A stretch of 64,000 nucleotides of DNA from an uncultured Pseudomonadota bacterium (GCA_963729535.1 CAVSOL010000006.1:111418-175417), one strand, 5' to 3'. Positions 15,392 to 50,249 are shown, counted from the first letter of the stretch. The notes: generated by a model not told the origin, from the letters alone. Translations and numbers: made by a program.

Positions 15392-15964
15392 CTACTGCGT
15401 GTCGCATGCGACGTTCGCTGCCGTGCAGAACATCCCGTACGTGTTGCCGGTCGAGCCGCTTTGACACAGCGGAAGTGTGGCGTCGTGGCAATCGGCGCTC
15501 CCGGTGCAAGTCGTGGTGCAGGCCGCGAACACGCTGCCGTGGTTCGTGCAGCTGAAACAGGTCGTTCCCGTCGCGCACGGCTGACCGCACTCGGGGACGA
15601 AAGTCGTGCACTTGCCCTGGACGCAAGTGACACCCGCGGTGGCTTGGAATTGCACACGTGAGCCATCGTCGACGAGCGGCTGCTGCGCTGCGCACCCACA
15701 TGCCGGATAGGTCGGGTCGCACTGCGCCTCGAGCGTCGTGAAGCGCGTCTGCTCGGTTGCCCGCAAACCGAAGATCTGTTCCTGCCCGCAGCAATTCATG
15801 GTGTGCGAAACGGCGACGCAGTCGGCGCTGGTGGCGCACGATCGATCGAGCTCGAGCACCGCCTGACACGCGCCGGAGCCACCGCCGCCATCTGGACCTC
15901 CGAGCGAGCTCGAGCCACACGCCCCCGCAGACAACACCAAAACGGCAGACAGTTGGAATCGCAT
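15392..15964 (-). CDS. Cys-rich secreted lipoprotein
   Basis: MRFQLSAVLVLSAGAC signal; about 30 Cys in 190 aa. Confidence 0.6.
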   Translation of the reverse strand: MRFQLSAVLVLSAGACGSSSLGGPDGGGGSGACQAVLELDRSCATSADCVAVSHTMNCCGQEQIFGLRATEQTRFTTLEAQCDPTYPACGCAAQQPLVDDGSRVQFQATAGVTCVQGKCTTFVPECGQPCATGTTCFSCTNHGSVFAACTTTCTGSADCHDATLPLCQSGSTGNTYGMFCTAANVACDTQ

Positions 15965-17950: not shown

Positions 17951-19126
17951 TCACTGCAGGCGGTAGTCGAAGCCGGCGCGGCTGATGGCGTGGGCGACGA
18001 CGGCGTTGCCACAGTCGAACTGCTCGATGAAGAAGGCGTTTCGGTGGGGCGAATATGTGATGCTGTTGGGGGTGAAGGGCATCGGCTCGCCGATGGGCTG
18101 GAACGACACGCCCTTGTCGGTGGAGATCATGAGCTTCTGGCTTCCGGGCACGACGATGCGGCCGTCGGGCAGCTCGATGGGATGGCCGGTCTTGAGCGTG
18201 CCGGCCTGGATGGTCTGCGTCCAGGTGCGGCCCTGGTCGGTGCTCTTGATCAGGCCGCGGTCGTAGATGAGCGACCAGTAGATCGTCCCGTCCGAGGCCC
18301 ACAGCGGCAGGGCGGCCGCCGATGCGCTGGTCGTGGGCGTCCAGGTCTTGCCGCCGTCGGTGGTACGGAAGACGCCGTCGGTGCCACCCGCGTAGCCGGA
18401 GCAGCCGACCAGGTGAACGTTCCTGTCGATGACCAGGGCGTTCGTGCAGAAGTTCGTGCCGGCGGGCAGGTTGTTGCCGACGTTTGTCCACGTGGCGCCG
18501 CCGTCCTGCGAGCGGTACAGCGTCTGCTTCTGCTCGTGGCCGCCCGCCAGCAGCGTCTGGCGCTGCGGGTCGGCGAGGTCGACGCTGACGGAGTCGATGT
18601 GGCGCGCGTCGCCCAGCGGCGTGAACGTCGCGCCGTTGTCGGTCGTGCGGTAGACGCCGGGGCCGTTGTAGATGCCGGACTCCCAGAACGTGGCGGCGTG
18701 CGCGGGGTCGAAGACGATCGACGAGCCGCGGTTGGTGATCTGCTGCATGCCCGCCGCGGGCCACAGCTGGGTCCAGCTCGCGCCGCCGTTGGTGCTGGAC
18801 CACAGCCCCTGCTTCGCGACGCTGGTGATCAACATGTCGCTGGCGGGGTGCGCCGCCAGGTAAGGCGTGTTGCCGCACTCGGAGGCCATGCCCGCGAGAT
18901 TGGCGGTGACGTTGGTCCACGCCGCCGGCGGCGTCTCGCCCACCGGCGTGACCGTCATGCCGGCGGCGCCCGTCGTGCCCGCGCCGCCCGTCGTGCCCGC
19001 CGCACCCGTCGCGCCCCCGGCGCCCGTCATTCCCGCCGCGCCGGGCGTTCCAGCCTCCGAGCCTGCCGACGAACAGCCCGCCAGCACAGCGAGCGCCACC
19101 AGCGTCCATCGAGGTGCAACGTTCAT
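17951..19126 (-). CDS. BNR/Asp-box repeat lipoprotein (beta-propeller)
   Basis: MNVAPRWTLVALAVLAGCSS signal with a strong GGAGG SD; six SxDxGxTW-like boxes (STNGGASWTQ, TTDNGATFTP, SQDGGATWTN, TTDGGKTWTP, STDQGRTWTQ, STDKGVSFQP). Confidence 0.75.
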   Translation of the reverse strand: MNVAPRWTLVALAVLAGCSSAGSEAGTPGAAGMTGAGGATGAAGTTGGAGTTGAAGMTVTPVGETPPAAWTNVTANLAGMASECGNTPYLAAHPASDMLITSVAKQGLWSSTNGGASWTQLWPAAGMQQITNRGSSIVFDPAHAATFWESGIYNGPGVYRTTDNGATFTPLGDARHIDSVSVDLADPQRQTLLAGGHEQKQTLYRSQDGGATWTNVGNNLPAGTNFCTNALVIDRNVHLVGCSGYAGGTDGVFRTTDGGKTWTPTTSASAAALPLWASDGTIYWSLIYDRGLIKSTDQGRTWTQTIQAGTLKTGHPIELPDGRIVVPGSQKLMISTDKGVSFQPIGEPMPFTPNSITYSPHRNAFFIEQFDCGNAVVAHAISRAGFDYRLQ

Positions 19127-19140
19127 GGGCTGCCTCCTTC

Positions 19141-20782
19141 CTACTCGTCGAGGATCAGATCTACCCCCGTGACCAACACGCGGTACGTTCCGGTCCACGT
19201 GCCGCTCGACTGCAGCTCGAGCAGGTTGTCGCCGTCGCGCAGGTCCGCGAGGTCGACGTCGATCATCTGGTTGAGGAGGCCGGCGCTCGCGCCCGCGCCG
19301 CCGAGCGACGGGTTGAAGTCCGTGAACGCGTTCGCCTCGACGGCGCTGACGGCGCGATCGCGCCAGGCGCCTCCGTTCCAGCGCAGCCGCAGCACCATCA
19401 TCGTGGGCGGCGGAAACATCATGTTCCACTCGAACCACGGGTAGGCCGCCGCCAGGGCCACGCGCGCCCGCCGCGCGCCGCCCTTCGTGACCCCCGAAAA
19501 ATGCAGCGCCGCGGGGGGCGCCGTCTCGGTCGACGTGGGGACGAGGTACCCGACGTTGCGTCCCTCCCCGTCGTAAGTGCACGTCGTCTGCGCGCACGTC
19601 ACCCGGCCCGAGTCCTCGGGGAACGCGGGGATGACGTCGCCCTCCCATCGACACTCCGCGCCGCCCATCGTGCAGCCGGACAGGCCCCTGAACGTCGTCA
19701 AGCGAGTCGGGCGCGCTGTACTCGCGCCCACCGGCGACGACGGGCCCGTCGAACCCGATGTTGTCGAAGCGCACGCTGGCCGCCGACCCGAGCCAGTACT
19801 TCATCGTCGCGTGGTTGCGCAGCGCCAGGCTCACGTAGCCGCGCGAGAACGGCAGCGCGATGTCGCCCGCCCACAACATCTTCAGGTCGGGAAAGCTGGC
19901 GCCGTCGGCCGAGACATCGGACACCCACACCTCGATGTGCGTCTGGGTGACGTAGACCTCGACGTGGTTGAGCGCGCCGGGAGCCGTGGTGGCGTGCGGG
20001 ATCGCGCAGTCGAACGACGGGATGTACGAGGTCTGCACGTAGTCGTTGAACGTGTAGACGATCGTCTCCAGCGTCTGCGGCGTGTTGCACCAGCCCGTGC
20101 CGAACTCGATCTCGACGCCGTTGCGCGGGCCGGAGCCGCGCTCCTGCCAGTCGAAGCTGGGCGCGGGGGATGGGTCCTGGGCGATGATCAGCGCCGGCCA
20201 GCCGCCGAGGCCGTTGTTGGTCAGATCCATGTCGAGCTTGATGGTCCCCGTGCGGCCCGCGAAGTCGAACGGCTGGCGGATGCGATACGTCGCGAGGCCG
20301 TAGTTCTGCTCGGCGGCCGTCGCCAGCGCGTGACGGGTGGGAACCGTCGCGGTGGGATCGCAGACCAGCACGTCCCTGTCCGGCAGTACGCGCACGTTGG
20401 AGAGATCCGCGCGGCAGGCGCCGATCAGGGCCGGGCCAACGCGGATCGCGTCGTCGAAGCTGGCGCTGTTGTAGGGCTGCCCGCGCGCGACGCTCCAGCG
20501 CGCCGGATCGAGCTCGCCCGAGCGGCCGCCGCCCGTGGCAGGGCCGGCCTCGAAGTCCTCGCAGAACGCGGGCGCCGTGAAGCCGCAGGTGCCGGGCGAC
20601 GGGACGTAGGTGGCGTCGGGGCGGGCGAACGGGACGTCGGGCAACATGCCGGCGTCGGGCAGCGCCGGACCACCGTCGGCGGGCCCGCCCCTGCCCGCGG
20701 CGCCGTCGGCGCCGGTCTGCGCGGCGCCACCGCCACACGCCGCGAGGGCCGCGAGCGCGCCCAGCGACGCGAACCGTCTCAC
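19141..20782 (-). CDS. Secreted hypothetical protein (frame correction needed about 19700)
   Basis: GTG start overlapping the CCP stop (GTGA); signal VRRFASLGALAALAACGGG; the C-terminal about 190 aa continue in the frame of ORF 19141..19731. Confidence 0.5.
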
Positions 20783-27984: not shown

Positions 27985-28090
27985 AGGTGATGTGAAGAAG
28001 AACGAGTAGTTACAACCAGCAATCGTTCCCTCGACGAGCGAAACGTCAGCGATTCACAAGACTTGCGTCGGGAACGATTGGGGCGTTTGT
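27985..28090 (+). repeat. MITE-like inverted-repeat element, copy 1 (TIR AATCGTTCCC / GGGAACGATT)
   Basis: GTGAAGAAGAACGAGTAGTT...CAATCGTTCCCTCGA..AGCGAAACGTCAGC...GGGAACGATT; a second copy lies at 38880-38975; low-GC context. Confidence 0.45.
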
Positions 28091-32790: not shown

Positions 32791-32859
32791 GCGCGTCAGG
32801 TTACCCCGAACTGAAAATCGCCGTCCGCGGGGCTACCCGCGGCCAGCTTCGCGGAGTCC

Positions 32860-33010
32860 GTGCAGTCATATCTCGTCGAGCTGGCGCGGGGTCGGGATCC
32901 GCAGGCTGCGCTTTTCGGGGAGCACTGGCGTGACTGGCCGCGGAAGTGGGTGCAGCGGATTTGCAAGGCGGCGGGTGTGCCGAACGTCTCGGCACACGGG
33001 ATGCGTGGCC
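32860..33010 (+). pseudogene. Tyrosine-integrase internal fragment
   Basis: SYLVELARGRDPQAALFGEHWRDWPRKWVQRICKAAGVPNVSAHGMRG, near-identical to 38410-38560 and 42500-42650. Confidence 0.4.
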
Positions 33011-34845: not shown

Positions 34846-35832
34846 ATGGGAATCCTGAGACGGCAACTCCGGTCGGTGATCGAATGGAAAGGCGTCGACG
34901 GCAAGGCGCTGTTCGCCCAGTGGTCTGACAACGGCGACGAGATCAAGAACGCCTCGAAGCTCATTGTCGGACCGGGGCAGGGGTGCATCTTCGTGTACGA
35001 GGGGCGCGTCGCGGCCGTCCAGCTCGAGCCCGGCATCTACCCGCTGAAGACCGCCAACATCCCGTTCCTCACCACGCTCAAGAAGGTCATGCAGTTCTTC
35101 GTGAGCGAGCACAAGGTCGGCATCTACTACTTCCGGACGGCGAAGCTCCTCGATCTGAAGTGGGGGACACCGTCGCCGATCAAGTACGACGACCCGGTCT
35201 ACAAGTTCCCGGTCACGTTGCGCGCCTTCGGCAACTACGCCATGCGCATCACCGAGCCCGGCGCTTTCTTCCGCGACGTGGTGGCCGGCAAGGATCCGTT
35301 CCTGATCGACGACATCCGCGAGCCCTTGAACGCCCGCCTGATCCAGCCGCTGGTCGACTTCCTGGCAGAGTCCAAGCTCAGCTACTCCCAGATCGACCCG
35401 GCCCGCGAGGAGATCGCCGCGGCGCTGACGCGCAAGCTGGCGCCCGACATCGAACGGCTCGGCTTCGAGCTCGAGGACTTCCGCATCGAGGGGACCAGCT
35501 TCGACGAGGACACCATGCGGCGGATCGACCGCATCGCTGACGTCGGCGCCGACCTCCACGCCGCCAGCGCAGCAGGTCTCACCTACGCGCAGATGCAGCA
35601 GCTCGCGGCGCTGCGCGACGCCGCCAAGAACGAAGGCGCGGCCGGCGCCGGGATGGCGATGGCCATCGGGATGGGTATGGGGAGCGGCCAAGTCGCGGCC
35701 GGCGTGGCGGCGACGCCGGCCGACGACGCGGCGGGCGCGAAGCTGCGCAAGCTGAAGATCCTGCTCGACCAGGGGCTGATCACGCAGGCCGAGCACGACG
35801 CGAAGCGGATCGAATCCTCGCCTCGCTCTGAG
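34846..35832 (+). CDS. SPFH/Band-7 (Band_7_1-type) domain protein with C-terminal SHOCT domain; C-terminus reads through repeat RPT-A
   Basis: GAAGGAG SD; WKGVDGKALFAQW...KLIVGPGQGCIFVYEGR...GIYPLKTANIPFL...YYFRT...WGTPSPI...LRAFGNYAMRITEPGAFF; SHOCT tail KLRKLKILLDQGLITQAEHDAKRIE. Confidence 0.75.
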
Positions 35833-35928
35833 CGGATAAGAAGAACAAGCGCGCTTTCGCCGATAAGCTCCCTTCCGTTAACCGCGCCTGGCCTCGACTT
35901 CTCGGGCCTTCGGCCCCCCCCTTGCCGG
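35833..35928 (+). repeat. RPT-A 95-bp repeat, copy 1 (contains CGGGCC-UUCG-GGCCCG hairpin)
   Basis: GCGGATAAGAAGAACAAGCGCG..TTCGCCGATAAGCTCCCTTCCGTTAACCGCGCCTGGCCTCGACTTCTCGGGCCTTCGGCCCCCCCTTGCCGGGG; other copies at 38978 and 41325. Confidence 0.5.
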
Positions 35929-36183
35929 GGTCGCTTGCTGGGGCGGGCCCTCACTCGGCATGTTGATCTACGGCGCGGGCGGCGATCGGAGGGGCGGGGG
36001 CCAGCGCGACATGCGACCTCTGGTAGTTCGTAAGCAGTCTATACTTAATGGTGGCGGACGCCCAGGCAACTCTCGACCGCGACCAGAACGTCATTGGCCG
36101 GTCTGAGATCGCTTCTGAAAAAGCGTTGGCACTTGATATGGCGATAGCGGGATTAGACCACGCCCCCATGAGCATCGACGGCC

Positions 36184-37941
36184 TCACTGCCGCCAGAACA
36201 GCGCGACGACCTGTTGCGTGTAGTCCGTGTACGAGCGGTAGGCGCCGCGTAGCCACAGCAGCGCGCGCTGGCTGCCGTCGCCGCCCGACGGCAGCAGCGG
36301 GCGGAGGTTGTCGCGGTTCGAGTTCTGAGTGATGGGCGTCCACGACCACGTCGCGCCCTGATCGGCGGTGACGCCGCGGTAGATCTCGTAGTGGCGGCGG
36401 TTGTCGGCGGTGCTGGTCAGCGGCGCGCCGGTCGTCGGGTTGGCGTTGGTCGATATGTAGACGACCGACGGATCGAAGGGGTCGAGCGTGGCGAGGCCGC
36501 TGTAGTCGTCTTCGTTCGCGTAGAGGCGCGATCCGGCGTAGGCGAGCGCAAAGTCACGCCACGCGGTTCCGTCCCAGCGCGCGTAGCGGTACCGGATGTC
36601 GTCGCCGCCCTGCCCGGTCGGAAGCCCCGCCGAGTTCATCTGCACGGAATAGGTGACGACCGGACGCCCCTGCGCGTCGAGTACCGTGTCCGAGCCCCAG
36701 GCCACCCGTTGCGCGTCGGCCTGGTAGATGCGTGTGCCCTGGTTTGGCATCGCCAGCCCCTCCGTCAGCGCGGCGATGCGCGTGCCGTCGCTGCGGTAGA
36801 GCAATCCGGCACGATAGAACACGTGGTAGAGGCTGGTGTCGAAGTCGCGCGGGTGCGCCTCGGTGTAGACGAGGTGGATGGTGTCGGTGCCGTTGCTCGC
36901 GTAGCGCACGTAGGGCCGTTGCAACGTGCCCGTGGAGGGCACGTTGATGACGACGTTGCCGCTTCTCCACGTCTGGCCCGAGTCGTCGGAGTACGCGTAG
37001 GACGGTTTGAAGCTGGCGTCGAGGCCACGGTAGAAGTCGTAGATACGGTTGGATTCGGACGACAGCAGGAACAGGTTGCTGTAGGTGAGCTTGGTCGTGG
37101 CGCTGGGGACGTAGGTCTGCTCCGCGGCCCACGTCAGCCCGTCGGTCGCCTGCGAGATGCGGTAGTAGAACCGGTTCTCGGTGTCATGTTTCCCGTACAC
37201 GCTGAGCAGGCGGCCGTCGGGGCGGACGAGAAACGCAGGTGAGTCGTGATCGTCGAGCTCGAGCTGTGCGTGCAGCTCGATGATGGTGGTGGTTCCCGTG
37301 CCGAGGTCGTGGACGAGCGCGCGCGCGTTGCCGCGGATGTTGGCGTTGCTGACGCCCGACGACAGCGTACCGACAATCATGCGGTTGCCGTAGAACAGCG
37401 CGCGCGGGCCCTGGAACCAGCACCAGCCGCCGTCGTCGGACAGCACCACCGGCGTTCCGGTCGGACCACCGGCCGCCCCGGAGGCACCACCGCGACCGCC
37501 GCCACCTATTCCGCCCGCGCCGGCCGACGCCCCGCCACGGCCAGCGCCTCCCACGCCGCCACCGGCGGCAGCTCCAGCACCGCCGGTCCCCGCGGACCCT
37601 GTCGCGCCCGCGCTGCCTGAAGTGCCCGCGCTGCCGCTGGTTCCCGCCGCGCCCGTGGTTCCCGCGGTGCCGGTCGTCCCCGCCCCGCCAATCGTGCCGG
37701 CCACCCCGGTCGCGCCCGCGCTGCCTGAAGTGCCCGCGCTGCCGGTGGTCCCGGCCGCACCCGTGGTGCCGGCCGCGCCCGACGTTCCCGCCACGCCTGT
37801 CGTTCCCGCGCCGCCCGAGATCCCAGCGCCGCCGCTCGTTCCGGCTGCACCGCTCGGCCCGGATCCCGACGGTGCGCAAGCGAGCAGCATCGCCGCCGAG
37901 ACCAGCGTCAGGACTCTACGCAGACACGACGTCGCCGACAT
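36184..37941 (-). CDS. BNR/sialidase-fold glycoside-hydrolase-like lipoprotein with in-frame (G[AS]AGT[TS])n linker, intact
   Basis: MSATSCLRRVLTLVSAAMLLAC signal; about 100-aa hexapeptide-repeat linker; SDDGGWCWFQ..., Asp-boxes SDDSGQTW and ADQGATWSW. Confidence 0.8.
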   Translation of the reverse strand: MSATSCLRRVLTLVSAAMLLACAPSGSGPSGAAGTSGGAGISGGAGTTGVAGTSGAAGTTGAAGTTGSAGTSGSAGATGVAGTIGGAGTTGTAGTTGAAGTSGSAGTSGSAGATGSAGTGGAGAAAGGGVGGAGRGGASAGAGGIGGGGRGGASGAAGGPTGTPVVLSDDGGWCWFQGPRALFYGNRMIVGTLSSGVSNANIRGNARALVHDLGTGTTTIIELHAQLELDDHDSPAFLVRPDGRLLSVYGKHDTENRFYYRISQATDGLTWAAEQTYVPSATTKLTYSNLFLLSSESNRIYDFYRGLDASFKPSYAYSDDSGQTWRSGNVVINVPSTGTLQRPYVRYASNGTDTIHLVYTEAHPRDFDTSLYHVFYRAGLLYRSDGTRIAALTEGLAMPNQGTRIYQADAQRVAWGSDTVLDAQGRPVVTYSVQMNSAGLPTGQGGDDIRYRYARWDGTAWRDFALAYAGSRLYANEDDYSGLATLDPFDPSVVYISTNANPTTGAPLTSTADNRRHYEIYRGVTADQGATWSWTPITQNSNRDNLRPLLPSGGDGSQRALLWLRGAYRSYTDYTQQVVALFWRQ

Positions 37942-38214: not shown

Positions 38215-38736
38215 GTGCGCCTCACACGTCGAGAGCGGCCAGCGCAAATCCGACGTGGCGATACTGCAGATCCTCCACTGCGCGCTGGGCGGCGTGGCCT
38301 GAGCACCACTGACAGGGCGTCCTGGCCGAGCGGAGCGCGGCGCCTCTCTGTTCAGTTCCTTGAGCGCATTTTCATGAAGAGCGCTTTTGCAGGTACTCGG
38401 ACGTTTCTGCAGCCGTATCTCGTCGAGCTGGCGCGGGGTCGGGATCCCAGGCGGCGCTGTTCGGGGAGCACTGGCGTGACTGGCCGAGGAAGTGGGTGCA
38501 GCGGATCTGCAAGGGGGCGGGTGTGCCGGAGGTCGTCGGCGCACGGGATGCGTGGGCAATGCGACGAAGGAGGCATGGCGGTGGATAGCGGGATCACCTC
38601 TCACGCGGTCGCATCGGCGCTCGGCCACGAGTCGTTCAAGACGACGGCCGAGAGTTACGCGAAGCGCGAGGCGGTGGCGGGTGCGCAGCAGAAACGGGCG
38701 CTCGCGGTGCTCACCGGTGGGCGGCTGGCGTCGTGA
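38215..38736 (+). pseudogene. Tyrosine integrase 3' remnant (second copy)
   Basis: ...FLQPYLVELARGRDP...GITSHAVASALGHESFKTTAESYAKREAVAGAQQKRALAVLTGGRLAS* spread over two or more frames. Confidence 0.55.
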
Positions 38737-38878
38737 TGGATGGCCTCCTCAATACCTGCGGAGGCGCCCAATCGTTCTCCAATCGTTCCCAGAACCGTAC
38801 TTTCAATCCGAACTGAAGAAAAACCGAAGTGCTTTCGTGGAGCTGAACGGGATCGAACCGTCGGCCTCCTCAATGCCA
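38737..38878 (-). mobile_element. att-like segment: spacer with tandem CCAATCGTTC(C) motifs plus duplicated 3' 42 nt of tRNA-Ala (38837-38878)
   Basis: Direct repeat of 42803-42944; the tRNA-derived part runs from the anticodon loop to the 3' end. Confidence 0.55.
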
Positions 38879-38879
38879 T

Positions 38880-38975
38880 TTCGGGGTGAAGTGAAGAAGA
38901 ACGAGTAGTTGAGACAACCAATCGTTCCCTCGATAAGCGAAACGTCAGCAGTTTCGAAGCTTTGTAGTGGGAACG
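38880..38975 (+). repeat. MITE-like inverted-repeat element, copy 2
   Basis: Same termini (AATCGTTCCC...GGGAACGATT) and core as 27985-28090. Confidence 0.45.
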
Positions 38976-38977
38976 AT

Positions 38978-39072
38978 TCGAATCACGCTCGCCGATAGGC
39001 TGCCTTCCGTTAACCGCGCCTGGCCTCGACTTCTCGGGCCTTCGGGCCCGGGCCCCCTTGCCGGGTAGCTGG
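38978..39072 (+). repeat. RPT-A repeat, copy 2
   Basis: GCTCGCCGATAGGCTGCCTTCCGTTAACCGCGCCTGGCCTCGACTTCTCGGGCCTTCGGGCCCGGGCCCCCTTGCCGGG. Confidence 0.5.
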
Positions 39073-39197
39073 CACCACCGCGATAGCGTCGATTTCCACC
39101 AGCCAGTCGGGGCGGCCTAGACCGGCCACAAACGTCACCGTGACAGCGGGCGGGCGGCCACGGAAAGCTGCTGCGCGCGGCTGATACGCTTCGAGAG
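39063..39197 (-). pseudogene. Duplicated 3' fragment of ridA (about 93% identical to 2134-2262), same orientation as the intact gene
   Basis: Alignment of GGCACCACCGCGATAGCGTCGATTTCCAC.AGCCAGTCGGGGCGGCCTAG.CCGGCCACAAACGTCACCGTGAC.GCGGG.GG.CGGCCACGGAAAGCTGCTGC.CGCGGCTGATACGCTTCGA between the two loci. Confidence 0.5.
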
Positions 39198-39311
39198 CAC
39201 AGGAAGAACAAGCGAGGTTTGTCTGGTAATAGGGCGCTCCGTCAACTCCTGGGCCCTCCCGTTTCCCCGGGCCCTACGGGGCCTGCCGGAGCCCGGGCGT
39301 CTAGCCGAGCT

Positions 39312-40402
39312 TTACGGTGCGGTGAGAACCGCGATGAACCCGTTGTCGGTCGCGATCCCGGGCCCGTCGGCGCAATTCATGTTGAATTGCGAGTCGGTCT
39401 CGCTGCTGGTCGCCCAGAAGATCCAGTAGGAGCCGTTCGGCGTCGGGACGGCGGACGTCCACGCGGCGTGGGTGATCATCGCCGGCGGCGTCGTGCGGAG
39501 CACGCGGTCGTTGTGGGTGCGCGTGAAGGAGTAGCAGCCGGCGGTCGTGCGGAAGCTGCAGGTGGGCACGGTGTCGGCCGTGACGCCGAAGATGTCCATC
39601 ACCTGCGCGTCGGTGAGCTTCGGCAGCACGAGACCGTTTTGCGCGAAGAACCGGACCCTGCCGGCTTCGCCGTTCCGGATCTGCAAGCTACGCCTGGTGT
39701 AGGCACCGCAGAACGGGCAGACCGAGATGTCGCGTTGCTCGAAGTCGACCCACACGGTGTCGCCCGCCGCCGCGGTGATGAACGGCGCGTAGATGCTATT
39801 GAGGGTTCCGTTCCAGAATCAGCGAGCTGCCGTCGGCGAACGAGAATCTCCGGTCCCGTCGTCTGCATCCGCAGGGTGGCCATCCCCCGACAGAGGGTTG
39901 CCTGGAGGGTGACGAACCCCGGCGTAACGGTCGTCATGCAGCTTGCGGTGCCGGAGGTGCCCGGCGACCCGGCGTCGGGGACGCCGCCGTCGCTGCTGAG
40001 CGGGCCCACGAAAGTCCAGCCGAAAGGAGGGCGTATCGCGTCAGTGTCCCAAGTGCTGCGCGGCCCAACGTTGGAGCAGCTCCCGGCAGCGCCGCCTCCG
40101 CCCTGCCCCGCGGTCCCACCCGCTCCGCCGGTGCCGCCACGACCGCTGGTTCCGCCGCTGCCGCTGGTGCCACCGGGGCCACCGCCGCCGCTCGTACCGC
40201 CGGTGCCGCTCGTGCCACCGGTGTCGCTGCTGCCGCCGGTGCCGCTCGTGCCACCGCTGCCGCTCGTGCCGCTCGTGCCGCCGGTGGCGGTGGCGCTGGC
40301 GCCGCCGCGGCCGCCACCGCCCGGATCACTCGAGCTCGAGCCACCGCACGCGACCCCGGCGCACGCCAGTCCGATCGCGAGCAACCGTAGGCCTTTCATC
40401 AT
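39312..40402 (-). CDS. Gly-rich lipoprotein of unknown function (frame correction needed about 39830)
   Basis: MMKGLRLLAIGLACAGVACGG signal and linker in ORF 39599..40498; C-terminal domain (...VWVDFEQRDISVCPFCGAY...) in ORF 39312..39755. Confidence 0.5.
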
Positions 40403-40503
40403 CGCGACCGAAGTTAGCAAGAACCATGCTGCGCTATCCCCGTGGTTTCGCGGCACTGTGCGACCCGCCCCGACGCGGTCCGCCCTGAACCGCGACATGC
40501 CTG

Positions 40504-41046
40504 TCAGGGCGGAGGTCTAACCGGGCCCACGCAGTCCGCGTAGATGCAGCCGACGTTGAACGCGCCCGCGGCTGTCTGGGTCGGGCCCGAGATCGTGAAC
40601 GTGCCTTCTAGATCGCCCATCTCCGCCTTCGTCAGCACGACCTCGCCCTCGGTCACGTAGCTGCCGCCGAAGGCGATTGTGGGATCGGCGCACGCCACGG
40701 CGAAGGTGCCGGCGCTCGCGGCGCCCACGGGGTATGCGCCGGGTGCGGGGAGCGCCGTCGCGGCCGTGATCAACGAGCAGAACTGAAGTTGCTCGGTCGC
40801 GGCGTCGATGACGAGGGACGCGGCGCTGAAGCGGTAACCGACGGCCTTGAGCCCGTGCGGCATGAAGCTTTCGTAGGCCGTCACCGTGACTCCGCCGGCG
40901 GTCCACACGAACTGCCCCTGGTCCGGGATCATCGGAGGAGTCGTTTTCCCCGGCTGGGCCGGATCAACCGTTCCGTCGTCGCAACCGGCGAGCGCGTAGG
41001 CGGTCGCCAACACCAGCAGTCGAGCCATGCGCGCCGAGGTGGTCAT
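40504..41046 (-). CDS. Small lipoprotein
   Basis: MTTSARMARLLVLATAYALAGCDDG signal; ORF 40504..41346 is over-extended at its 5' end. Confidence 0.5.
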   Translation of the reverse strand: MTTSARMARLLVLATAYALAGCDDGTVDPAQPGKTTPPMIPDQGQFVWTAGGVTVTAYESFMPHGLKAVGYRFSAASLVIDAATEQLQFCSLITAATALPAPGAYPVGAASAGTFAVACADPTIAFGGSYVTEGEVVLTKAEMGDLEGTFTISGPTQTAAGAFNVGCIYADCVGPVRPPP

Positions 41047-41085
41047 GTTTGTCAGCTTGTAAGACGCGCGGCCGGCTGGGATATG

Positions 41086-41340
41086 GCCACCGTGCGTAAG
41101 GCCGCCATTTCCTTGCGCAGTTTGGCGAGATCCAACCGGGAGGGTCGTGCGGCGAACGTCACTGCGGCACGCGCTCCCGTCGTCCAGGCCCCACCCCGCG
41201 ACGTCATCGACCAGATCCAGATCCCGATCCCCTGCAAGGTGTCGTGGGACGACATGACGGGCGACGAGCAAGTGCGCCACTGCGGCCAGTGCCGGCAGAA
41301 CGTTTACAACATCGCGGCGTTCACCCGCGGCGGATAAGAA
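41086..41340 (+). CDS. 84-aa protein ending in a CxxxW...HCxxC zinc-ribbon-like motif, terminated by the TAA contributed by RPT-A (possibly truncated)
   Basis: ...IPIPCKVSWDDMTGDEQVRHCGQCRQNVYNIAAFTRGG*; the stop lies inside GCGGATAA of repeat copy 3. Confidence 0.4.
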
Positions 41341-41432
41341 GAACAAGCGCGGGTTCGGCCGATAGGTCGCCTTCCGTTAACCGCGCCTGGCCTCGACTTC
41401 TCGGGCCTTCGGGCCCGGGCCCCCTTGCCGGG
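41325..41432 (+). repeat. RPT-A repeat, copy 3
   Basis: GCGGATAAGAAGAACAAGCGCGGGTTCGGCCGATAGGTCGCCTTCCGTTAACCGCGCCTGGCCTCGACTTCTCGGGCCTTCGGGCCCGGGCCCCCTTGCCGGG. Confidence 0.5.
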
Positions 41433-41499
41433 CGAGAACAAGGACCCTGGCCTGCGCAATTTGGCCGCCGGCGCAAGACTCACCCCCCGGACGCGCGGT

Positions 41500-42030
41500 C
41501 AACAGGGAGTGCCCTCGCCGGGGTCGGGGTCGCGGAGGTCGAGCGGGCACGGCTCCGACTCCATGCCAGGCGCACCCGGCGGTGCGCGAGGACCGGCGAT
41601 AGCGGGCGCCTCGGTGATTTCGCCGAGGTGCCGGAGAATTCGCCGGATGGCGCCCGGCTCGATCAACGGCGCTGACGATACGCATTCGGCCGTGGCAGCG
41701 CCGGCATTCCAGCGCGTCGACGACAAATACCCTTTTCAGCAGCTCTGCCCAGGGGAGGCGGTACGGTGATGGCTCCCGTACACCAGGCTCCCTGGGTACC
41801 TGGGTTGCGGGCGGCGGGGACGACCTTCGACCTGAACCCGGCCGCCGGCGCGAGGATGCCGTGGAATCGGATGGTGTGCTTGCGCGGTCGCGGCACGAGG
41901 GGCAGAAGTCGCTCGATGAGCTCGAAGGGCGTGAACAGAACGGCCGCCGTGCCGTCGGAGAATGGCCGCTTGAAGCGCAGCATGACACGCCCGTCGGCGA
42001 GTTGGGAAAGCCGGTCGGTGGCCATGGGTG
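41500..42030 (-). mobile_element. IS91-like transposase C-terminal remnants (frameshifted), second locus
   Basis: ...RFHGILAPAAGFRSKVVP..., PYRLPWAELLKRVFVVDALECRRCHGRMRIVSAV, ...IEPGAIRRILRHLG spread over three frames. Confidence 0.45.
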
Positions 42031-42802
42031 GCGCTCGGAAGCATCACGCCCGCGAAGGGGGAGGCGCTCTACGCGTCGCTTCGTTCGCGCAAGACGCAGC
42101 ACGGCGGAATGCTATCGGTCGATTCGCACCGCACGATGTTGGCGGCGGCGAAGACGTTCTTCCGGTGGTGCGTGGTGGAGAAGAAGTGGACTGGCCCGGA
42201 ATCCGCTCGACGTAGTGAAAGGGCATCGGGAAGGTACGGCACGGGAAAGAACAGTTGAGGATCGACGAAGCGCGCAAGTGGATGGTGGAGGCGCATCGGC
42301 AGGCGGACGCCGGACAGGCGGGGGCGGTGGCGGCGATGACGGCGCTGGTGATGGGGATGCGGGCGTCCGAGATGGTGAGCCGAGTGGTTCGCGATCTCGA
42401 CGATGGCGGGGCGTTGCTCTGGATCCCGGACTCGAAAACGTTGGCTGGACGGCGAAAGCTGCAGGTACCGGAGTTCCTGCAGCCGTATCTGCGTCGAGCT
42501 GGCGCGGAGTCGGGATCCTCAGGCGGCGCTGTTCGGGGAGCACTGGCGGGACTGGCCGCGGAAGTGGGTGCAGCGGATCTGCAAGGCGGCGGGGGTGCCG
42601 AAGGTCGACGGCACACGGGATGCGGGGGCTGCACGGGACGCTCGCGGTGGATAGCGGGATCACCTCCCACGCGGTCGCCTCGGCCCTCGGCCACGAGTCG
42701 TTCAAGACGACGGCCGAGAGCTACGCGAAGCGCGAGGCGGTGGCGGGTGCGCAGCAGAAACGGGCGCTGGCGGTGCTCACCGGAGGGCGGCTGGCGTCGT
42801 GA
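41990..42802 (+). pseudogene. Tyrosine recombinase/integrase adjacent to tRNA-Ala, disrupted by two or more frameshifts
   Basis: N-terminal domain (SVDSHRTMLAAAKTFFRWCVVEKKW) in ORF 42028..42258, box I region (MRASEM...LLWIPDSKTLAGRRK) in ORF 42255..42968, ELARSRDPQAALFGEHWRDW in ORF 42403..42654, and box II/catalytic Tyr region (HAVASALGHESFKTTAESYAKRE) in ORF 41861..42802. Confidence 0.65.
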
Positions 42803-42896
42803 GCGGTGGCCTCCTCAATACCTGCGGAGAACGACTCCAATCGTTCCCCAATCGTTCCCAGAACCGTACTTTCAATCCGAACTGAAGAAAAACCGA

Positions 42897-42969
42897 AGTG
42901 CTTTCGTGGAGCTGAACGGGATCGAACCGTCGGCCTCCTCAATGCCATTGAGGCGCTCTCCCAGCTGAG
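42897..42969 (-). tRNA. tRNA-Ala (anticodon GGC)
   Basis: 73-nt cloverleaf GGGGCTG-TA-GCTC-AGCTGGGA-GAGC-G-CCTCA-ATGGCAT-TGAGG-AGGCC-GACGG-TTCGATC-CCGTT-CAGCTCC-A; G3:U70 alanine identity pair present; CCA not encoded. Confidence 0.9.
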
Positions 42970-43016
42970 CTACAGCCCCGTGAGGGACGATTAACTAGCA
43001 GTCACGGGCGCCCGGG

Positions 43017-43967: not shown

Positions 43968-45962
43968 ATGTCGTTTACATGCGCTGCGCGGTGGGCGCTG
44001 GTCGCTTTGGTGGCGTTCGGGGCGGCGTGTAGTTCCGGACCGCGCGCGGACACCACGGCGCCGTCGGGGAGCTTCGCGGTCACCGAGCGCGCCGAGACGG
44101 TACCGACGACAGCGATCGCCGTCCGCCCGCCCTTCGTGTGGGTCGCGGGCGGGGCCGGCCTGCGGCGCTTCGAGCTGGGCGAAACCGAGGCCGAAGAAGT
44201 CGCGCCCGCCTCACACCCGGGCGCGCGCGGCGTCACCGCCATCGCGATCGACGACGAGGGCGGGGCCTGGGTCGCCGCCGCCGGCGAGGTCGGCCGCTGG
44301 GTCGATGCCGGCGACGAATTTCGCTACGAGCGCAAGGGGACGCCGGGGCGGGCGACCGCGCTGGTGCCGCGCCGACCGACCGCGTCCGAAGGCATCTGGG
44401 CCGCCGGGCCAGCCGGGCTGTTTCGCTACGACGGCCGCATCTTCAACAGCGTCGATGCACTGTACGAGGTGGGCGTGACGTCGCTGGCGCTCGACGACGA
44501 CGGCAAGGGGGTGTGGGCGGGGACGCGCGGCCGCGGTCTGTACCGCGCCGACGGCGATCGCGCGGCGCCGATACCAGGCAACGACGGGCTGATCCTGGAT
44601 GACTTCGTCGGCGTGGTGAAGACCGCCGCCGGGACGCGCATCGCGGCCGGCAACGTCGCCGCCGGGGCGCGCCTGTTCGCGCTGACCGCCTCGGGCGCCG
44701 TCGAGGGTTACCGCGCGCCCGCCGGTGTGCGCGCCATCGCGCTGGTCCGGCGGGGCGGTGACGCCGTCCTGATCGCCGCCGGCGCAACCGGCGACGCCCA
44801 GGCCTACACGCTGCGCCCGCTGGCTCCCGCCGAAAACTTCCCCACCGGTAGCCTGCGGTTCTCGTCGCTGATCGCGGAGCGCCCCGCGCGCTGGGCGGGC
44901 ATCCCGACCGGCGACAAGCTGCCGCCCGACGTCAAGGTCGCCGCGGCGGGCGGTGACGAGCTGGTGGTGGGCAGCGCGCACATGGGCGCGGCCCGCATCG
45001 GCGGCGGCGCGGGGCCGCGCTATATCCCCGGCTCGCAGCTGGTCGGCGACGCCAGCCGGCTGTTCCTCGCGTGCGTGTCGCGCGCGCGCTGCTACGCCAT
45101 CACGGGCGGCCCGCGCGCCTGGCTGACCGACGGCGACAAATACGAAGAGACGCGCGTCGGCGAGCCGGCCGAATCCGTGCCGCTGGCGCTGACCTCCGAC
45201 GCGCAGGGAGGCGTCTACGCGATCGCCGCCGAGCCGCCCCCCGGTGGTCTGGCGATCATGAAGTACGCGGCTGCCGGGGCCGGCGGCAAGCCCGACTGGC
45301 TGAACCTGCACAAGGTCGCGCTGGACCTGCCCGCCAAGACGACGGCGCGCGTGACGTTCGCGGCCATCGCGCCCGCCAACACGCTGTGGATCGGCCTGCG
45401 CGCCGCCAGCGCGGACGGCGGCGAGGTCGGCATCGGCGCGATCGAGATCGAGCTCGGCAATGGGCACGCCGTGCAGCACGGGCCAGCCGGCAAGGGCAAG
45501 CGGGCGGCCGAGGCTCTGCCGCTCCCCGCCAGCCTGACCGACATCCTGTTCGACAGCGGCGCGACGTATTACGCGTCGCTGGCCGGGGTCAGCCGCTGGC
45601 AAGAAGGCCAGCTCCGCAGCTGGAGCGAGAACGAAGGCCTGGCCAGCGAGCTCGTGCATGCGATCGCGCGCGGCCCCGACGGCGCGATCTGGGCCGCCAC
45701 GTCGGCGGGTCTGGTGCGCTTCGACGGCAAGGACTGGCGGCCGCTGGGCACGACTGAGCTTCCCGTGCGCGGGCTGGCTATCGATGGAAAATCGCGTGCT
45801 TGGGTTGCGACCAGCAAGGGGCTGCGCATGCTCACCGGCGCCTCCGATCCGCTGACCGCGCCCGTCATCGTGGCGGGCGAAATGCGCGACGTGGTCGCCG
45901 ATCGTTTCGGTCGAGTTTGGGCGATGAGCACGACGTCGATCGCATTCGTCGACGAAAAATAA
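43968..45962 (+). CDS. Lipoprotein with two-component-regulator-propeller (Reg_prop-like) repeats
   Basis: LVAFGAACSS lipobox; repeated G.W.gT..GL.r.DG..W units (GIWAAGPAGLFRYDGRIF, GVWAGTRGRGLYRADG, AIWAATSAGLVRFDGKDWR, RAWVATSKGLRML). Confidence 0.75.
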   Translation: MSFTCAARWALVALVAFGAACSSGPRADTTAPSGSFAVTERAETVPTTAIAVRPPFVWVAGGAGLRRFELGETEAEEVAPASHPGARGVTAIAIDDEGGAWVAAAGEVGRWVDAGDEFRYERKGTPGRATALVPRRPTASEGIWAAGPAGLFRYDGRIFNSVDALYEVGVTSLALDDDGKGVWAGTRGRGLYRADGDRAAPIPGNDGLILDDFVGVVKTAAGTRIAAGNVAAGARLFALTASGAVEGYRAPAGVRAIALVRRGGDAVLIAAGATGDAQAYTLRPLAPAENFPTGSLRFSSLIAERPARWAGIPTGDKLPPDVKVAAAGGDELVVGSAHMGAARIGGGAGPRYIPGSQLVGDASRLFLACVSRARCYAITGGPRAWLTDGDKYEETRVGEPAESVPLALTSDAQGGVYAIAAEPPPGGLAIMKYAAAGAGGKPDWLNLHKVALDLPAKTTARVTFAAIAPANTLWIGLRAASADGGEVGIGAIEIELGNGHAVQHGPAGKGKRAAEALPLPASLTDILFDSGATYYASLAGVSRWQEGQLRSWSENEGLASELVHAIARGPDGAIWAATSAGLVRFDGKDWRPLGTTELPVRGLAIDGKSRAWVATSKGLRMLTGASDPLTAPVIVAGEMRDVVADRFGRVWAMSTTSIAFVDEK

Positions 45963-48551: not shown

Positions 48552-50249
48552 ATGATCGGGGCCATGACTGCGACGACGACCGCCACGACGACGGCGACGA
48601 CGATCCCCCGGGCCGAGCAGATGTTCCCGCGGCTGACCCCGGCCCAGATTGAACGCGTCGCGAGCGTCGGACACCGGCGCGACGTGCGCGCCGGCGAGAT
48701 GCTGTTCGACGTCGGCGATCAGAACACGCAGTTCTTCGTCGTGGTGTCGGGCGCCGTCGACATCGTGCGGCTGATCGGCGATCGGGAAGAGCCGCTGGTC
48801 GTCCATGGCGAGGGGCAGTTCACCGGCGAGATCAACATGCTGTCGGCGCGGCGAAGCCTCGTGCGCGCGCGCATGGCCGGCGCCGGCGCGGTCATCGCGG
48901 TCGATCGCGACGCTCTGCGCACGCTCGTGCAGCGCGACTCCGAGCTGAGCGAGATCCTGATGCGCGCCTTCATCCTCAGGCGCGTCGCGATAGTCGGGCA
49001 GGAGAGTCAGGAGATGGTGCTGCTCGGCTCGCGCCACTCGGGCAACACGCAGCGTATCCGCGAGTTCCTGAGCCGCAACGGCCAGCCGTTCACCTACCAG
49101 GACGTCGAGACCGACCCGAACGTGCAGATCCTGCTCGATCAATTTCACATCCAGGTGGCCGACGTCCCCGTGGTCCTGTGCCGGGGTGGCCACGTCCTCA
49201 AGAACCCGTCACCGGAGCTGCTGGCGTCGGCGATCGGCCTCAGCGCGGAGCTCGACGCGGAGCACGTACGCGAGCTCGTCATCGTGGGCGCGGGGCCGTC
49301 GGGGCTCGCGGCCGCGGTCTACGGCGCGTCCGAAGGGCTGGACGTGCTGGTGCTCGAGAGCACCGCGCCCGGCGGGCAGGCGGGCACCAGCTCGCGCATC
49401 GAGAACTACCTGGGCTTCCCCACCGGGATCTCGGGCGAGGCGCTGGCCGGGCGCGCGCTGACGCAAGCGGAGAAGTTCGGCGCCGAGGTGGCCATCGGCC
49501 GCACGGTCGTTCGACTCGACTGCGACAGCCGGCCATATCGCCTGCATCTGTCCGACGGCACCGTGGTGCGGACGCGCGCGATCGTCATCGCCGCGGGCGT
49601 GAAGTACAGGAAGCTCGATCTACCGTCGCTGCCGCGCTACGAGGGGGCGGGCGTCTTCTATTGCGCTACCCATCTCGAGAGCCAGCAGTGCGTGGGGCAG
49701 GAGGTCGCGGTCGTGGGCGGCGCCAACTCGGCCGGGCAGGCGGCGGTGTTCCTCGCCGGCGCCGCCACGCGCGTCCACATGCTGGTGCGCGGGCCCGGGC
49801 TGGCGGACAGCATGTCGCGCTACCTGATCCAGCGCATCGAGGCCACCCCGAACATCGTGTTGCGTACGCGCACCCGGGTCGAAGCGCTCGACGGGGAAAA
49901 AGGCCTCGAGCGGATCCGGTGGCTGCACCTCGACACCGGCGAGCAGGAGACGCGCGACATCCGCAACCTTTTCATGATGACGGGCGCGGACCCCCACACC
50001 GCGTGGCTCGAAGGCTGCTTGGTCATGGACGACAAGAAGTTCGTGAAGACCGGCGCGGAGCTGCTCCCCGAGGACCTGGCCAGGGCCCACTGGGCGCTGC
50101 CGCGCCGCCCCTACCTGCTCGAGACCAGCATCCCCGGCGTGTTCTGCATCGGCGACGCGCGCTCAACCAGCGTCAAGCGCGTGGCATCGGCGGTGGGCGA
50201 AGGCGCGATCTGCGTGCAGCTCGTGCACCGCGCGCTGCAAGAGCTGTGA
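48552..50249 (+). CDS. Cyclic-nucleotide-binding domain fused to a thioredoxin-reductase-like FAD/NAD(P) oxidoreductase
   Basis: N-terminal cNMP-binding/Crp-like beta-roll (FFVVVSGAVDI...GEGQFTGEI), then GAGPSGLAAAVY and GGANSAGQAAVFL dinucleotide motifs, then the C-terminal TrxR-like end. Confidence 0.85.
   Translation: MIGAMTATTTATTTATTIPRAEQMFPRLTPAQIERVASVGHRRDVRAGEMLFDVGDQNTQFFVVVSGAVDIVRLIGDREEPLVVHGEGQFTGEINMLSARRSLVRARMAGAGAVIAVDRDALRTLVQRDSELSEILMRAFILRRVAIVGQESQEMVLLGSRHSGNTQRIREFLSRNGQPFTYQDVETDPNVQILLDQFHIQVADVPVVLCRGGHVLKNPSPELLASAIGLSAELDAEHVRELVIVGAGPSGLAAAVYGASEGLDVLVLESTAPGGQAGTSSRIENYLGFPTGISGEALAGRALTQAEKFGAEVAIGRTVVRLDCDSRPYRLHLSDGTVVRTRAIVIAAGVKYRKLDLPSLPRYEGAGVFYCATHLESQQCVGQEVAVVGGANSAGQAAVFLAGAATRVHMLVRGPGLADSMSRYLIQRIEATPNIVLRTRTRVEALDGEKGLERIRWLHLDTGEQETRDIRNLFMMTGADPHTAWLEGCLVMDDKKFVKTGAELLPEDLARAHWALPRRPYLLETSIPGVFCIGDARSTSVKRVASAVGEGAICVQLVHRALQEL

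Follow-up and report, generated by a model that had tools for sequence, protein, structure and literature searches.

How does a tRNA gene in a soil myxobacterial (Polyangia) genome come to have an exact copy of its 3' half about 4 kb away, with broken integrase genes trailing behind it? The original prediction for the 64 000-nt stretch of DNA analyzed here (hereafter the window) was serial site-specific integration into the 3' half of tRNA-Ala. This reading held up: the duplicated stretch ends in the anticodon loop, intact homologues occupy syntenic sites, one relative (L005) lacks the integrase, and both a contrast in identity between element and flanks and a codon bias are present. We directly observed the sequence anatomy, homology, synteny, identity contrast and codon-position bias; together they make it very likely that the locus is a tDNA integration hotspot at which related elements of the ICE/IME type accreted in tandem and decayed. 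This is a known kind of event, of which the locus is a clear yet ordinary example.

ARAGORN and Rfam (tRNA model, 60.9 bits) agreed on a single, intact tRNA-Ala(GGC) in the window (42906/7–42979, minus strand), and alignment with relatives supports 42906–42979; the gene and its strand were predicted correctly, with coordinates (42897–42969) about 10 nt off. A G3:U70 pair can be read from its sequence. A 44-nt core (42906–42949, minus), which begins at tRNA position 32 and reaches the 3' end, recurs exactly (44/44 identity) and in direct orientation 4069 nt away (38837–38880, minus). The duplicated segment starting at the anticodon loop had been anticipated, but at 42 nt. The tRNA-derived 42-mer has two exact occurrences in the window, where 0.00 would be expected, and no third tRNA-derived core survives there. 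The core belongs to a longer direct repeat (38388–38880 and 42460–42949; 92% identity over 498 columns) that comprises an integrase 3' end, a spacer and the tRNA piece, its final 113 nt being 99% identical. Neither outcome named beforehand as contrary to the prediction (failure of these repeats to align, or a related genome with the same gene order and no tRNA-Ala or integrase homology) was found. Aligned with relatives, the repeat stops exactly at position 32, within the anticodon loop; anticodon-centred attP sites would give this end point, which supports serial integration. The spacer between integrase stop codon and tRNA 3' end is indeed repeated and measures 100–103 nt in both copies; the previously proposed length of about 140 bp counts the tRNA piece.

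We refer to the element adjoining the tRNA as B and to the older one behind it as A. The core next to the tRNA is then attL of B, and the displaced fragment is an internal att core in which attR of B is joined to attL of A in an attP-like layout. The 5' part of the tRNA gene (42950–42979) is chromosomal, and its 3' part is the copy brought in by B.

The integrase of B (Int-B, 42028–42802, plus) is a pseudogene covering aa 110–365 of a 365-aa tyrosine integrase. In tblastn with the intact homologue P0002 its homology is split over three reading frames, and nucleotide alignment to the intact gene of L001 places four 1-bp insertions at 42190, 42224, 42491 and 42606. The N-terminal 109 codons are missing, replaced by an IS91-type transposase fragment. 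After frameshift correction, Int-B matches PF00589 (40.4 bits, cutoff 27.1, E = 3.3e-10) and displays the motifs GMRASE, DSKT, HGMRG, LGHES and ESYAK. Motif assignment in P0002 gives R220, K245, H304, R307, H330 and Y340 as candidate catalytic residues, spaced in parallel with R212/K235/H308/R311/H333/Y342 of lambda Int; a sequence search for a solved structure of the integrase returned no match. Int-B encodes the R...K...HxxR...H...Y motifs across its frames, and Int-A (38388–38736, plus; tblastn and nucleotide alignment), comprising aa 258–365 and showing 10 indel columns against the intact gene, retains only HxxR, H and Y. Both the frameshifted integrase and the second 3' remnant had been recognized, at 41990–42802 and 38215–38736, but 41990–42027 belongs to a minus-strand fragment of an IS91 Y2 transposase and 38215–38387 is an unrelated ORF extension that is not integrase-derived. 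All integrase copies are dead, as proposed: Int-B is frameshifted and truncated, and the others (A and C–F) are fragments of 16–108 codons, leaving no uninterrupted full-length ORF.

On either side of the cores lie motif-bearing arms. The integrase-proximal arm (spacer) of B (42803–42905, plus) contains two direct copies of CAATCGTTCC (42838–42847 and 42849–42858) and, at 42808–42818, GGCCTCCTCAA, a second copy of a core segment; that of A (38737–38836, plus) holds CAATCGTTCT, CAATCGTTCC and GGCCTCCTCAA. The outer (distal) arm of B (38881–38978, plus) presents CAATCGTTCC at 38919–38928, then GCGAAACGTCAGC, then inverted GGGAACGATT at 38969–38978. This layout is conserved in the metagenome junctions L021 and L022 and in a second window copy (27986–28080, plus; motif pair at 28020–28029, plus, and 28071–28080, minus), an orphan outer arm that an older element left behind and whose adjoining tRNA-derived core is missing. 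CAATCGTTCC occurs six times in the window (0.09 expected), is confined to att arms, and is present in the int–tRNA spacer of every fetched spacer-containing locus of the family that we examined, including the tRNA-Ala(CGC) subfamily; its copies are predicted arm-type integrase-binding sites. Two independent metagenome contigs, L021 and L022, show the same junction of integrase, spacer, tRNA 3' half and outer arm, with another truncated integrase ahead of it in L022. Repeats of such size can confuse assemblers, and mis-joining in a metagenome-assembled or draft genome might mimic such a tandem. We regard such an artefact as extremely improbable: the copies are just 88–92% identical and differ by indels, which argues against collapse or mis-joining, long housekeeping genes in the window are intact (e.g. 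Lon at 833 aa, besides ORFs of 1003 and 1249 aa), and the same junction type appears in independent assemblies.

Related Polyangia carry intact counterparts of the integrase. Two 365-aa homologues (P0001 and P0002) share 95–96% amino acid identity with the window integrase, and PF00589 was found in all but one (P0086) of the 120 homologues listed. Intact integrases lie at the syntenic tRNA-Ala in L001, L002 and the contig encoding P0004, which have right-flank genes in common with the window (a hypothetical protein, a Reg_prop protein and Lon); an integrase is likewise present at this tRNA-Ala in L010, whose identity is 91%. In the more distant L005, the tRNA and the right-hand synteny (window 43–61 kb) are present with no integrase, and similarity to the window breaks off at the tRNA 3' end. 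We found no close relative that covers both flanks of the locus. Relative to L001, the integrase DNA is 94.5% identical; the value is 82.6% for Lon and only 67–70% for the two flanking genes. Mismatches at first, second and third codon positions number 5/4/30 between B and L001 (p = 3e-8), 7/6/16 between A and B (p = 0.013) and 4/1/11 between B and a third copy, C (p = 0.004); A, B and C, in which aa 259–308 are present three times, differ mutually by 8–11%. The contrast between element and flank identity, together with the third-position bias, indicates separate integrations of related elements and not local duplication. Slippage or unequal crossing-over could have duplicated a unit of ~4 kb that included both the integrase 3' end and the tRNA 3' half, with subsequent drift, and two co-oriented copies 4069 nt apart are what this would leave; however, only about 490 nt of the unit are common to both copies, and the common block ends exactly in the anticodon loop. 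Drift in a dead duplicate would also spread evenly over codon positions, whereas here identity is complete in the 44-nt core, 99% over the last 113 nt and 91.5% in the coding part, whose differences are biased to third positions. With the outer arm beside the inner core being a conserved feature of the elements, we judge local duplication very improbable.

Serial integration also accounts for at least part of the debris farther from the tRNA, where integrase/att remains had been proposed at 32860–33010, 13270–13410, 5620–5700 and 3757–3933. These are real integrase fragments, but none retains a tRNA-derived core. Fragment C (32852–33009, plus; tblastn and nucleotide alignment) covers aa 259–308 (92% amino acid identity, no indels) and is joined on both sides to unrelated truncated genes. 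Fragment D (13275–13397, plus; tblastn) consists of aa 341–365, the stop codon and 46 nt of proximal arm including GGCCTCCTCAA. Fragment E (5624–5686, plus; tblastn) covers aa 134–156 (78% amino acid identity; 83% nucleotide identity over 5645–5686), and fragment F (3789–3837, plus; tblastn and nucleotide alignment) covers aa 237–252 (94% amino acid and 98% nucleotide identity). All six integrase fragments are co-oriented (plus strand), and the integrase sequence left in them shrinks with increasing distance from the tRNA (775, 349, 158, 77, 63 and 48 nt). Since aa 259–308 occur three times with 8–11% divergence biased to third positions, at least three distinct gene copies are represented, and the number of elements at the site is at least three and up to six. 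Contrary to the prediction of a simple array, fragments C–F do not all lie beside an outer arm, and fragment D lies 14.6 kb away from the orphan arm at 28 kb. Three fragment boundaries fall within 14 nt of gene coordinates, a clustering that simple independent decay would not predict, and this 14-nt region contains GTTC.

IS91 elements target GTTC/CTTG and are able to carry adjacent DNA (PMC13181058). IS91-type rolling-circle (one-ended) transposition, or another non-site-specific rearrangement, might have made or moved pieces C–F, and perhaps A, from a single integrase, as the GTTC at the clustered boundaries and the placement of two transposase fragments would allow. The first fragment (41665–42031, minus; frameshifted, aa 350–483 of a 527-aa homologue by tblastn with the L014 transposase) directly abuts the truncated 5' end of Int-B, and the second (6077–6199) lies 380 nt from fragment E. 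Both resemble the IS91 family in their Pfam Y2_Tnp domain, of which the related element L014 holds an intact 527-aa copy; unlike family members, whose Y2/HUH transposase has a Zn-ribbon N-terminus, they are C-terminal pieces only (equivalent to aa ~350–483 and ~453–493), and no oriIS or terIS ends were recognized for either. Against an origin from one integrase stand the three divergent, third-position-biased copies of aa 259–308, the single orientation of every fragment, breakpoint flanks that share neither a common sequence nor an IS end, and the exact end of copy A at the anticodon-loop crossover, followed by a conserved outer arm. We give this origin a slim chance; the att duplication was not caused by the IS91-type element, which is here a passenger and a disruptor.

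Tandem accretion, our preferred reading, would have proceeded from an attP consisting of a tRNA-Ala copy from anticodon loop to 3' end, flanked by arms in which CAATCGTTCC stands as two direct copies next to the integrase and as an inverted pair at the distal end. Crossover in the anticodon loop would rebuild the tRNA from the element's copy and displace the old 3' half to the element's far end. Successive integrations of related elements would have left B, A and C, then D, E and F, B probably arriving last; deletions, frameshifts and an IS91-type insertion would then have eliminated the transfer genes and inactivated all the integrases. The B–A tandem or the whole array could instead have accreted in another host, been excised and transferred, and integrated here as one composite before decaying. 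Transfer of CIME–ICE composites is documented (PMC5704250), and the junction at 38388–38978 is laid out like those of L021 and L022, which suggests that composites or attP-like junctions circulate. Nothing separates such an arrival from stepwise integration in place, yet the gradient of decay away from the tRNA is more in keeping with stepwise arrival and A, B and C differ mutually by 8–11%, so that we consider a composite arrival unlikely, if less so than the other alternatives.

What the elements once carried is suggested by their relatives, in which the tRNA-proximal module comprises a small ORF, an RlxS-like (DUF3363) relaxase, a second small ORF and the 365-aa integrase. In L014, the 10 kb upstream of the integrase also contain TraF and a Toprim gene. 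Conjugation machinery (T4SS, coupling protein) would distinguish an ICE from an IME; the 10 kb fetched upstream of each intact integrase showed no T4SS genes. The linkage of the integrase to an RlxS-matching relaxase and a TraF-type peptidase (L014) recalls ICEMlSymR7A of Mesorhizobium (IntS, RdfS, TraF, RlxS), as do the tyrosine integrase and integration at the 3' part of a tRNA gene. Unlike in that element, the target is tRNA-Ala and not tRNA-Phe, no such transfer gene survives in the window, and the relaxase matches the RlxS model (E = 3e-81) with a score of 274 bits, where the curated cutoff is 850, so that it is only distantly related and no RlxS equivalog. The RlxS-like relaxase expected of an ICE/IME is present in relatives and absent from the window, where tblastn with the called genes of L002, L014, L019, L021 and L022 matched only integrase and flank and found no remnant of a relaxase, TraF or other transfer gene; because of this, the decayed copies can be taken as former full ICE/IMEs only by way of their relatives. 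In L002, L014 and L019, the 8–10 kb upstream of the integrase contained no second att (L001 offers only 5.3 kb), and none of the related loci yielded an intact element complete with its two ends.

In Islander, an intact tDNA and a displaced, direct-orientation 3' fragment mark the ends of an island, and anticodon-centred attP sites form a recognized class (PMC4383910). Element B has this form: the intact tDNA (42906–42979) and its cognate same-orientation fragment (38837–38880) bound an island that contains an integrase, albeit a pseudogene, 103 nt from the tRNA 3' end. The locus resembles Islander tandem arrays in its tyrosine integrase next to the tDNA, its anticodon-loop crossover and more than one island per tDNA (PMC4383910). 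It differs in that all integrases are pseudogenes or fragments and only B retains both tDNA-derived ends: A has no surviving distal tDNA fragment and C–F have none at all. Up to six integrase remnants behind one tRNA would fail the Islander filters, under which only four arrays of three or more were reported among 3919 islands (PMC4383910). Another parallel is ICESt1-type accretion in Streptococcus, in which, as outlined in a review (PMC5704250) of the work of Pavlovic 2004 and Bellanger 2011, a related element integrates at one att site and mostly decayed tandem composites result. The present tandem composite of mostly decayed elements is similar, but its phylum is Myxococcota (Polyangia), its target is tRNA-Ala and not fda or tRNA-Lys, its integrase and relaxase families are different, and cis-mobilization of the remnant is predicted from sequence.

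The proposal that much of 3.7–43 kb is island debris is plausible and partly supported. In its favour are the one orientation of the six integrase fragments, the orphan outer arm at ~28 kb, a RidA-like fragment duplicated at 2.1 and 39 kb, and a roughly estimated coding density that is lower left of the tRNA. The islands had also been called probably fixed, which is right for the older debris but may not be for the 4.07-kb segment 38881–42905, whose two att sites look intact. Like a CIME, this segment combines identical cores and motif-bearing arms with a dead integrase and no transfer gene. It could be excised by an integrase from elsewhere; remnant B would now be cis-mobilizable, leaving only with a helper integrase. 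Its coding density is ~24% (rough estimate), and its residual cargo consists, by ORF list, of a frameshifted Gly-rich lipoprotein gene (39312 to about 40400, minus) and a small lipoprotein ORF (40504–41046, minus), neither with a Pfam match. A short GC-hairpin repeat (41322–41432, plus; other copies at 35824–35933 and 38991–39065) truncates an upstream ORF fragment (about 41100–41340). The RidA-like copy in this segment (39064–39194, minus) matches the last ~43 codons of the gene at 94% identity; the gene itself is intact at 2123–2713.

The tRNA-Ala(GGC) gene occupies 42906–42979 on the minus strand (ARAGORN; Rfam 60.9 bits), and a G3:U70 pair can be read from its sequence. Self-comparison of the window yielded one strong direct repeat, 42460–42949 against 38388–38880 (92% over 498 columns), whose final 113 nt are 99% identical and which ends at 42949, i.e. 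at tRNA position 32 in the anticodon loop. Its left copy closes with a displaced tRNA segment (38837–38880), an exact 44-nt duplicate of the stretch from the anticodon loop to the 3' end (hereafter the core); a 42-mer of the core occurs twice in the window (0.00 expected). Beyond these two, no tRNA-derived core was found in the window at up to three mismatches or by short-word BLAST. A core-like 12-nt match at 19271–19282 lies inside a coding region and was treated as chance, and a terminator/promoter scan over 38.7–43.1 kb gave no hit. The original prediction had described the tRNA and its repeat correctly, apart from slight corrections to the coordinates.

Next to the tRNA lies the integrase pseudogene Int-B (42028–42802), located by tblastn with the homologue P0002 as aa 110–365 over three frames. 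Its frameshift-corrected translation matched PF00589 (Pfam, 40.4 bits against a cutoff of 27.1), and a database search recovered intact 365-aa homologues, P0001 and P0002, at 95–96% identity. Searching with the intact integrase gave no sequence match among solved structures. Compared with the intact gene of L001, a related Polyangia contig, Int-B is 94.5% identical and carries exactly four 1-bp insertions (42190, 42224, 42491, and 42606). Because the long housekeeping ORFs of the window are intact, the integrase frameshifts represent true decay rather than sequencing noise. An IS91-family Y2 transposase fragment (41665–42031, minus) stands in place of the missing N-terminus. The second remnant, Int-A (38388–38736), covers aa 258–365 with 10 indel columns. 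Four smaller pieces lie on the plus strand: fragment C (32852–33009, aa 259–308), D (13275–13397, aa 341–365 plus 46 nt of spacer), E (5624–5686, aa 134–156), and F (3789–3837, aa 237–252). As aa 259–308 occurs three times, at least three separate integrase genes are represented, and the non-collinear order of the fragments would allow possibly up to six. A second IS91-family transposase fragment (6066–6208, plus; aa ~453–493 of the protein from a related locus, L014) lies 380 nt to the right of fragment E and shares 76% nucleotide identity, inverted, with 41625–41768.

Intact relatives of the element place the integrase at the same kind of site. P0002 is encoded in L001, a contig of a Polyangia MAG (GCA_009772905.1), and in three metagenome contigs. 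L001 and the related locus L002 both have tRNA-Ala(GGC) downstream of the integrase, and beyond the tRNA of L001 come a hypothetical protein, a Reg_prop protein, and Lon, the gene order found to the right of the window tRNA; the contig encoding a third homologue (P0004) has the same layout as L001. The metagenome contig L010 (a relative at 91% nucleotide identity) also carries an integrase at this tRNA, within which the contig ends. The intact integrase is invariably preceded by two small ORFs with a ~590-aa DUF3363 relaxase between them; this relaxase gave a match to RlxS in NCBIfam (E = 3e-81, under the equivalog cutoff), and L014 also contains a TraF-type peptidase gene. The cargo of the relatives (L001–L003, L014, and L019) includes defence-type genes (Mrr/Mrr_cat, Schlafen/AlbA_2, HsdM, and AbiJ/Abi_C) and, in L014, an intact IS91-type transposase. 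Integrases 73–75% identical (L014 and L019) occupy tRNA-Ala(CGC), not GGC. Gene content and tRNA sites together point to an ICE/IME-type Polyangia lineage targeting tRNA-Ala genes. The search for an intact element complete at both ends was unsuccessful: no second att site lies within 8–10 kb upstream of the integrase in five loci (L002, L014, L015, L019, and L020), and L001 offered only 5.3 kb of upstream sequence for this search.

Several comparisons distinguish serial integration from local duplication of a single element. The integrase is 94.5% identical to its L001 counterpart, whereas the two adjacent chromosomal genes reach 67–70% and Lon reaches 82.6%; since the integrase exceeds its flanks, the integrase module moved between lineages later than the lineages split. 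Mismatches between Int-B and L001 fall 5/4/30 on first, second, and third codon positions (p = 3e-8), those between Int-A and Int-B 7/6/16 (p = 0.013), and those between fragment C and Int-B 4/1/11 (p = 0.004). To judge from this pattern, the copies diverged mostly as working genes under selection, which is expected of distinct elements and unlike a dead local duplicate. A distant relative, L005, has the same tRNA and right-hand synteny to 43–61 kb of the window; no integrase was found within the 9 kb covered, and similarity to the window ends at the tRNA 3' end. The downstream spacer is common to all integrase-bearing loci. Identity contrast, codon bias, L005, and the conserved arms thus support the original prediction of serial integration at this tRNA with subsequent decay of the modules. 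The acceptor stem differs in a compensatory manner, with C5:G68 in the window and L010, and A5:T68 in L001 (tRNA at 6499–6572) and L005. The 3' partner of this pair belongs to the half supplied by the element, so that the att copy of each element agrees with the tRNA of its host.

The att arms contain a candidate integrase-binding motif, CAATCGTTCC, found in the integrase–tRNA spacer (proximal arm). It occurs six times in the window (0.09 expected), always in att arms (42838, 42849, 38780, 38919, 28020, and 28071 on the minus strand), and was present in the spacer of every family locus that had been fetched up to the motif comparison and included a spacer, the CGC subfamily among them. The outer arm beside the inner core (38881–38978) bears two copies of the motif in opposite orientation, one on each side of GCGAAACGTCAGC, and is conserved in a second window copy (27986–28080) and in two independent metagenome contigs, L021 and L022. 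Both contigs show the order integrase, spacer, tRNA 3' half, and outer arm, exactly as in 38388–38978. In L022, the integrase ahead of this junction is truncated and fused to a relaxase fragment, indicating that decayed tandems of the family recur elsewhere. A segment of the tRNA anticodon stem and variable region within the core, GGCCTCCTCAA, reappears ~5 nt past the stop codon of the integrase (window 42808–42818, 38742–38752, and 13360–13370; L001 6402–6412; L021 526–536; L022 3986–3996); among the GGC-type elements examined, L010 is the exception. The proximal arm may thereby hold a second core-type site.

We propose that elements of this family integrate by crossover in the tRNA-Ala anticodon loop, rebuilding the tRNA gene from the element's own copy and displacing the former 3' half. 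On this model, several related elements arrived one after another; the transfer genes were then lost, and every integrase was inactivated, through deletions, frameshifts, and an IS91-type insertion. The lengths of the integrase pieces, moving away from the tRNA (775, 349, 158, 77, 63, and 48 nt), fit a newest element adjoining the tRNA, and do not prove it. No remnants of the relaxase, TraF, primase, or cargo genes of intact or related elements were found in the window. The positions of fragments C–F and the orphan outer arm do not make a clean array.

Element B, the segment between the two att sites (38881–42905), spans only 4.07 kb, whereas intact relatives lack a second att site within 8–10 kb of the integrase. 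By a rough measure, called ORFs cover ~24% of it, and it contains a lipoprotein gene broken by frameshifts, a small lipoprotein ORF, a fragment of a RidA-like gene, and a short repeat. The att site at either end looks intact. By its sequence, B would qualify as a cis-mobilizable element in the sense of a published review (PMC5704250). Compared between B and A, the presumably older neighbouring element to the left, the att sites, with their identical cores and arms bearing the motif, show 99% identity, in contrast to 91.5% for the integrase gene. It is conceivable, although we consider it improbable, that B is a working cis-mobilizable element rather than a fixed scar: with att sites preserved far better than the integrase gene, it could still be excised and carried by related ICE/IMEs invading Polyangia genomes. 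The family would then be an ICE/IME lineage of Polyangia, undescribed and widespread, that is specific for tRNA-Ala and assembles and rearranges composite islands.

The original prediction had also suggested that much of 3.7–43 kb is island DNA, an extent that our data make plausible and stop short of proving. In its favour, all six integrase fragments share one orientation, an orphan outer arm lies at 27986–28080, and coding density, roughly measured, is lower on the left side of the tRNA (66%) than on the right (83%). The last ~43 codons of an intact RidA-like ORF (2123–2713, minus), which has a hydrophobic stretch at its N-terminus, are duplicated inside element B (39064–39194, minus; 94% identity), connecting the leftmost part of the window with DNA of the island type. 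Synteny could not place the left boundary, as the searches yielded no closely related genome that covers both flanks: a scan of genome contigs returned only two real relatives (47–49% aa identity), the left-flank genes of L005 are absent from the window, and a metagenome scan gave one close relative, L010.

Three fragment boundaries cluster within 14 nt in gene coordinates (F end 42456, A start 42460, and C start 42469; window positions 3835/3836, 38388, and 32852, respectively). The site (42456–42482) comprises an inverted repeat, CTGCAGG-N10-CCTGCAG, plus a GTTC. A common inserted sequence was rejected, as the breakpoint flanks share no sequence. Speculatively, breakpoints clustered at a palindrome within the integrase gene may mark recurrent, site-directed inactivation. 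Fragments F and A would form a continuous aa 237–365 were 3836–38387 an insertion.

The tDNA island signature of the locus, with its att site centred on the anticodon, is the standard one known from Islander (PMC4383910), and the accretion and decay proposed here resemble those of ICESt1/CIME-type elements; the relaxase and TraF genes of the intact relatives resemble those of ICEMlSym-type elements. As far as our literature searches show, the family has not been described. The locus leaves knowledge of genomic-island formation unchanged. Its chief value is for Polyangia genome annotation and the att architecture of the family: a large, patchy, pseudogene-rich stretch is explained as a record of repeated mobile-element invasion, with precise att boundaries, a candidate integrase-binding motif, and a tie to an intact element family encoding an RlxS-like relaxase, often plus defence genes.

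Other features accompany the locus. A 75–110-nt repeat (35824–35933, 38991–39065, and 41322–41432; 91–97% identical) has GC-rich hairpins (GGGCCTTCGGGCCC and CCGGG...CCCGG), and two copies begin with GGATAAGAAGAACAAGCGCG and truncate ORF 3' ends (an SPFH gene at 34846–36033 and a fragment at ~41100–41340). It had no Rfam match, is absent from related loci, and may be an IS end or a MITE; as an IS91 end, it found no match in loci with an intact IS91-type gene and showed no terminal CTTG/GTTC target. To the right of the tRNA, ARAGORN called a 91-nt tRNA-Pro(CGG) at 44658–44748 (plus) inside a 664-aa Reg_prop ORF, probably a false positive given the lack of Rfam support at the gathering threshold. 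Lon and the ATP_bind_3 gene are separated by a gene (48552–50249, plus) encoding a cNMP-binding pyridine nucleotide-disulphide oxidoreductase of 565 aa; Lon and ATP_bind_3 are adjacent in L001, L005, and another related locus, L006, marking the oxidoreductase gene as a window-specific insertion. To the left of the tRNA, many predicted secreted proteins or lipoproteins begin with tracts rich in Gly, Thr, Ser, and Ala, whose coding DNA consists of periodic repeats of 9 or 18 nt (families D1–D8; 3936–5216, 13495–14397, 14458–15699, 16412–17587, 18939–19082, 36184–37941, and 39312–40400). One of these proteins has a weak Pfam Collagen match, and their C-terminal domains vary (GH8, BNR_4, Hint, and Peptidase_S74).
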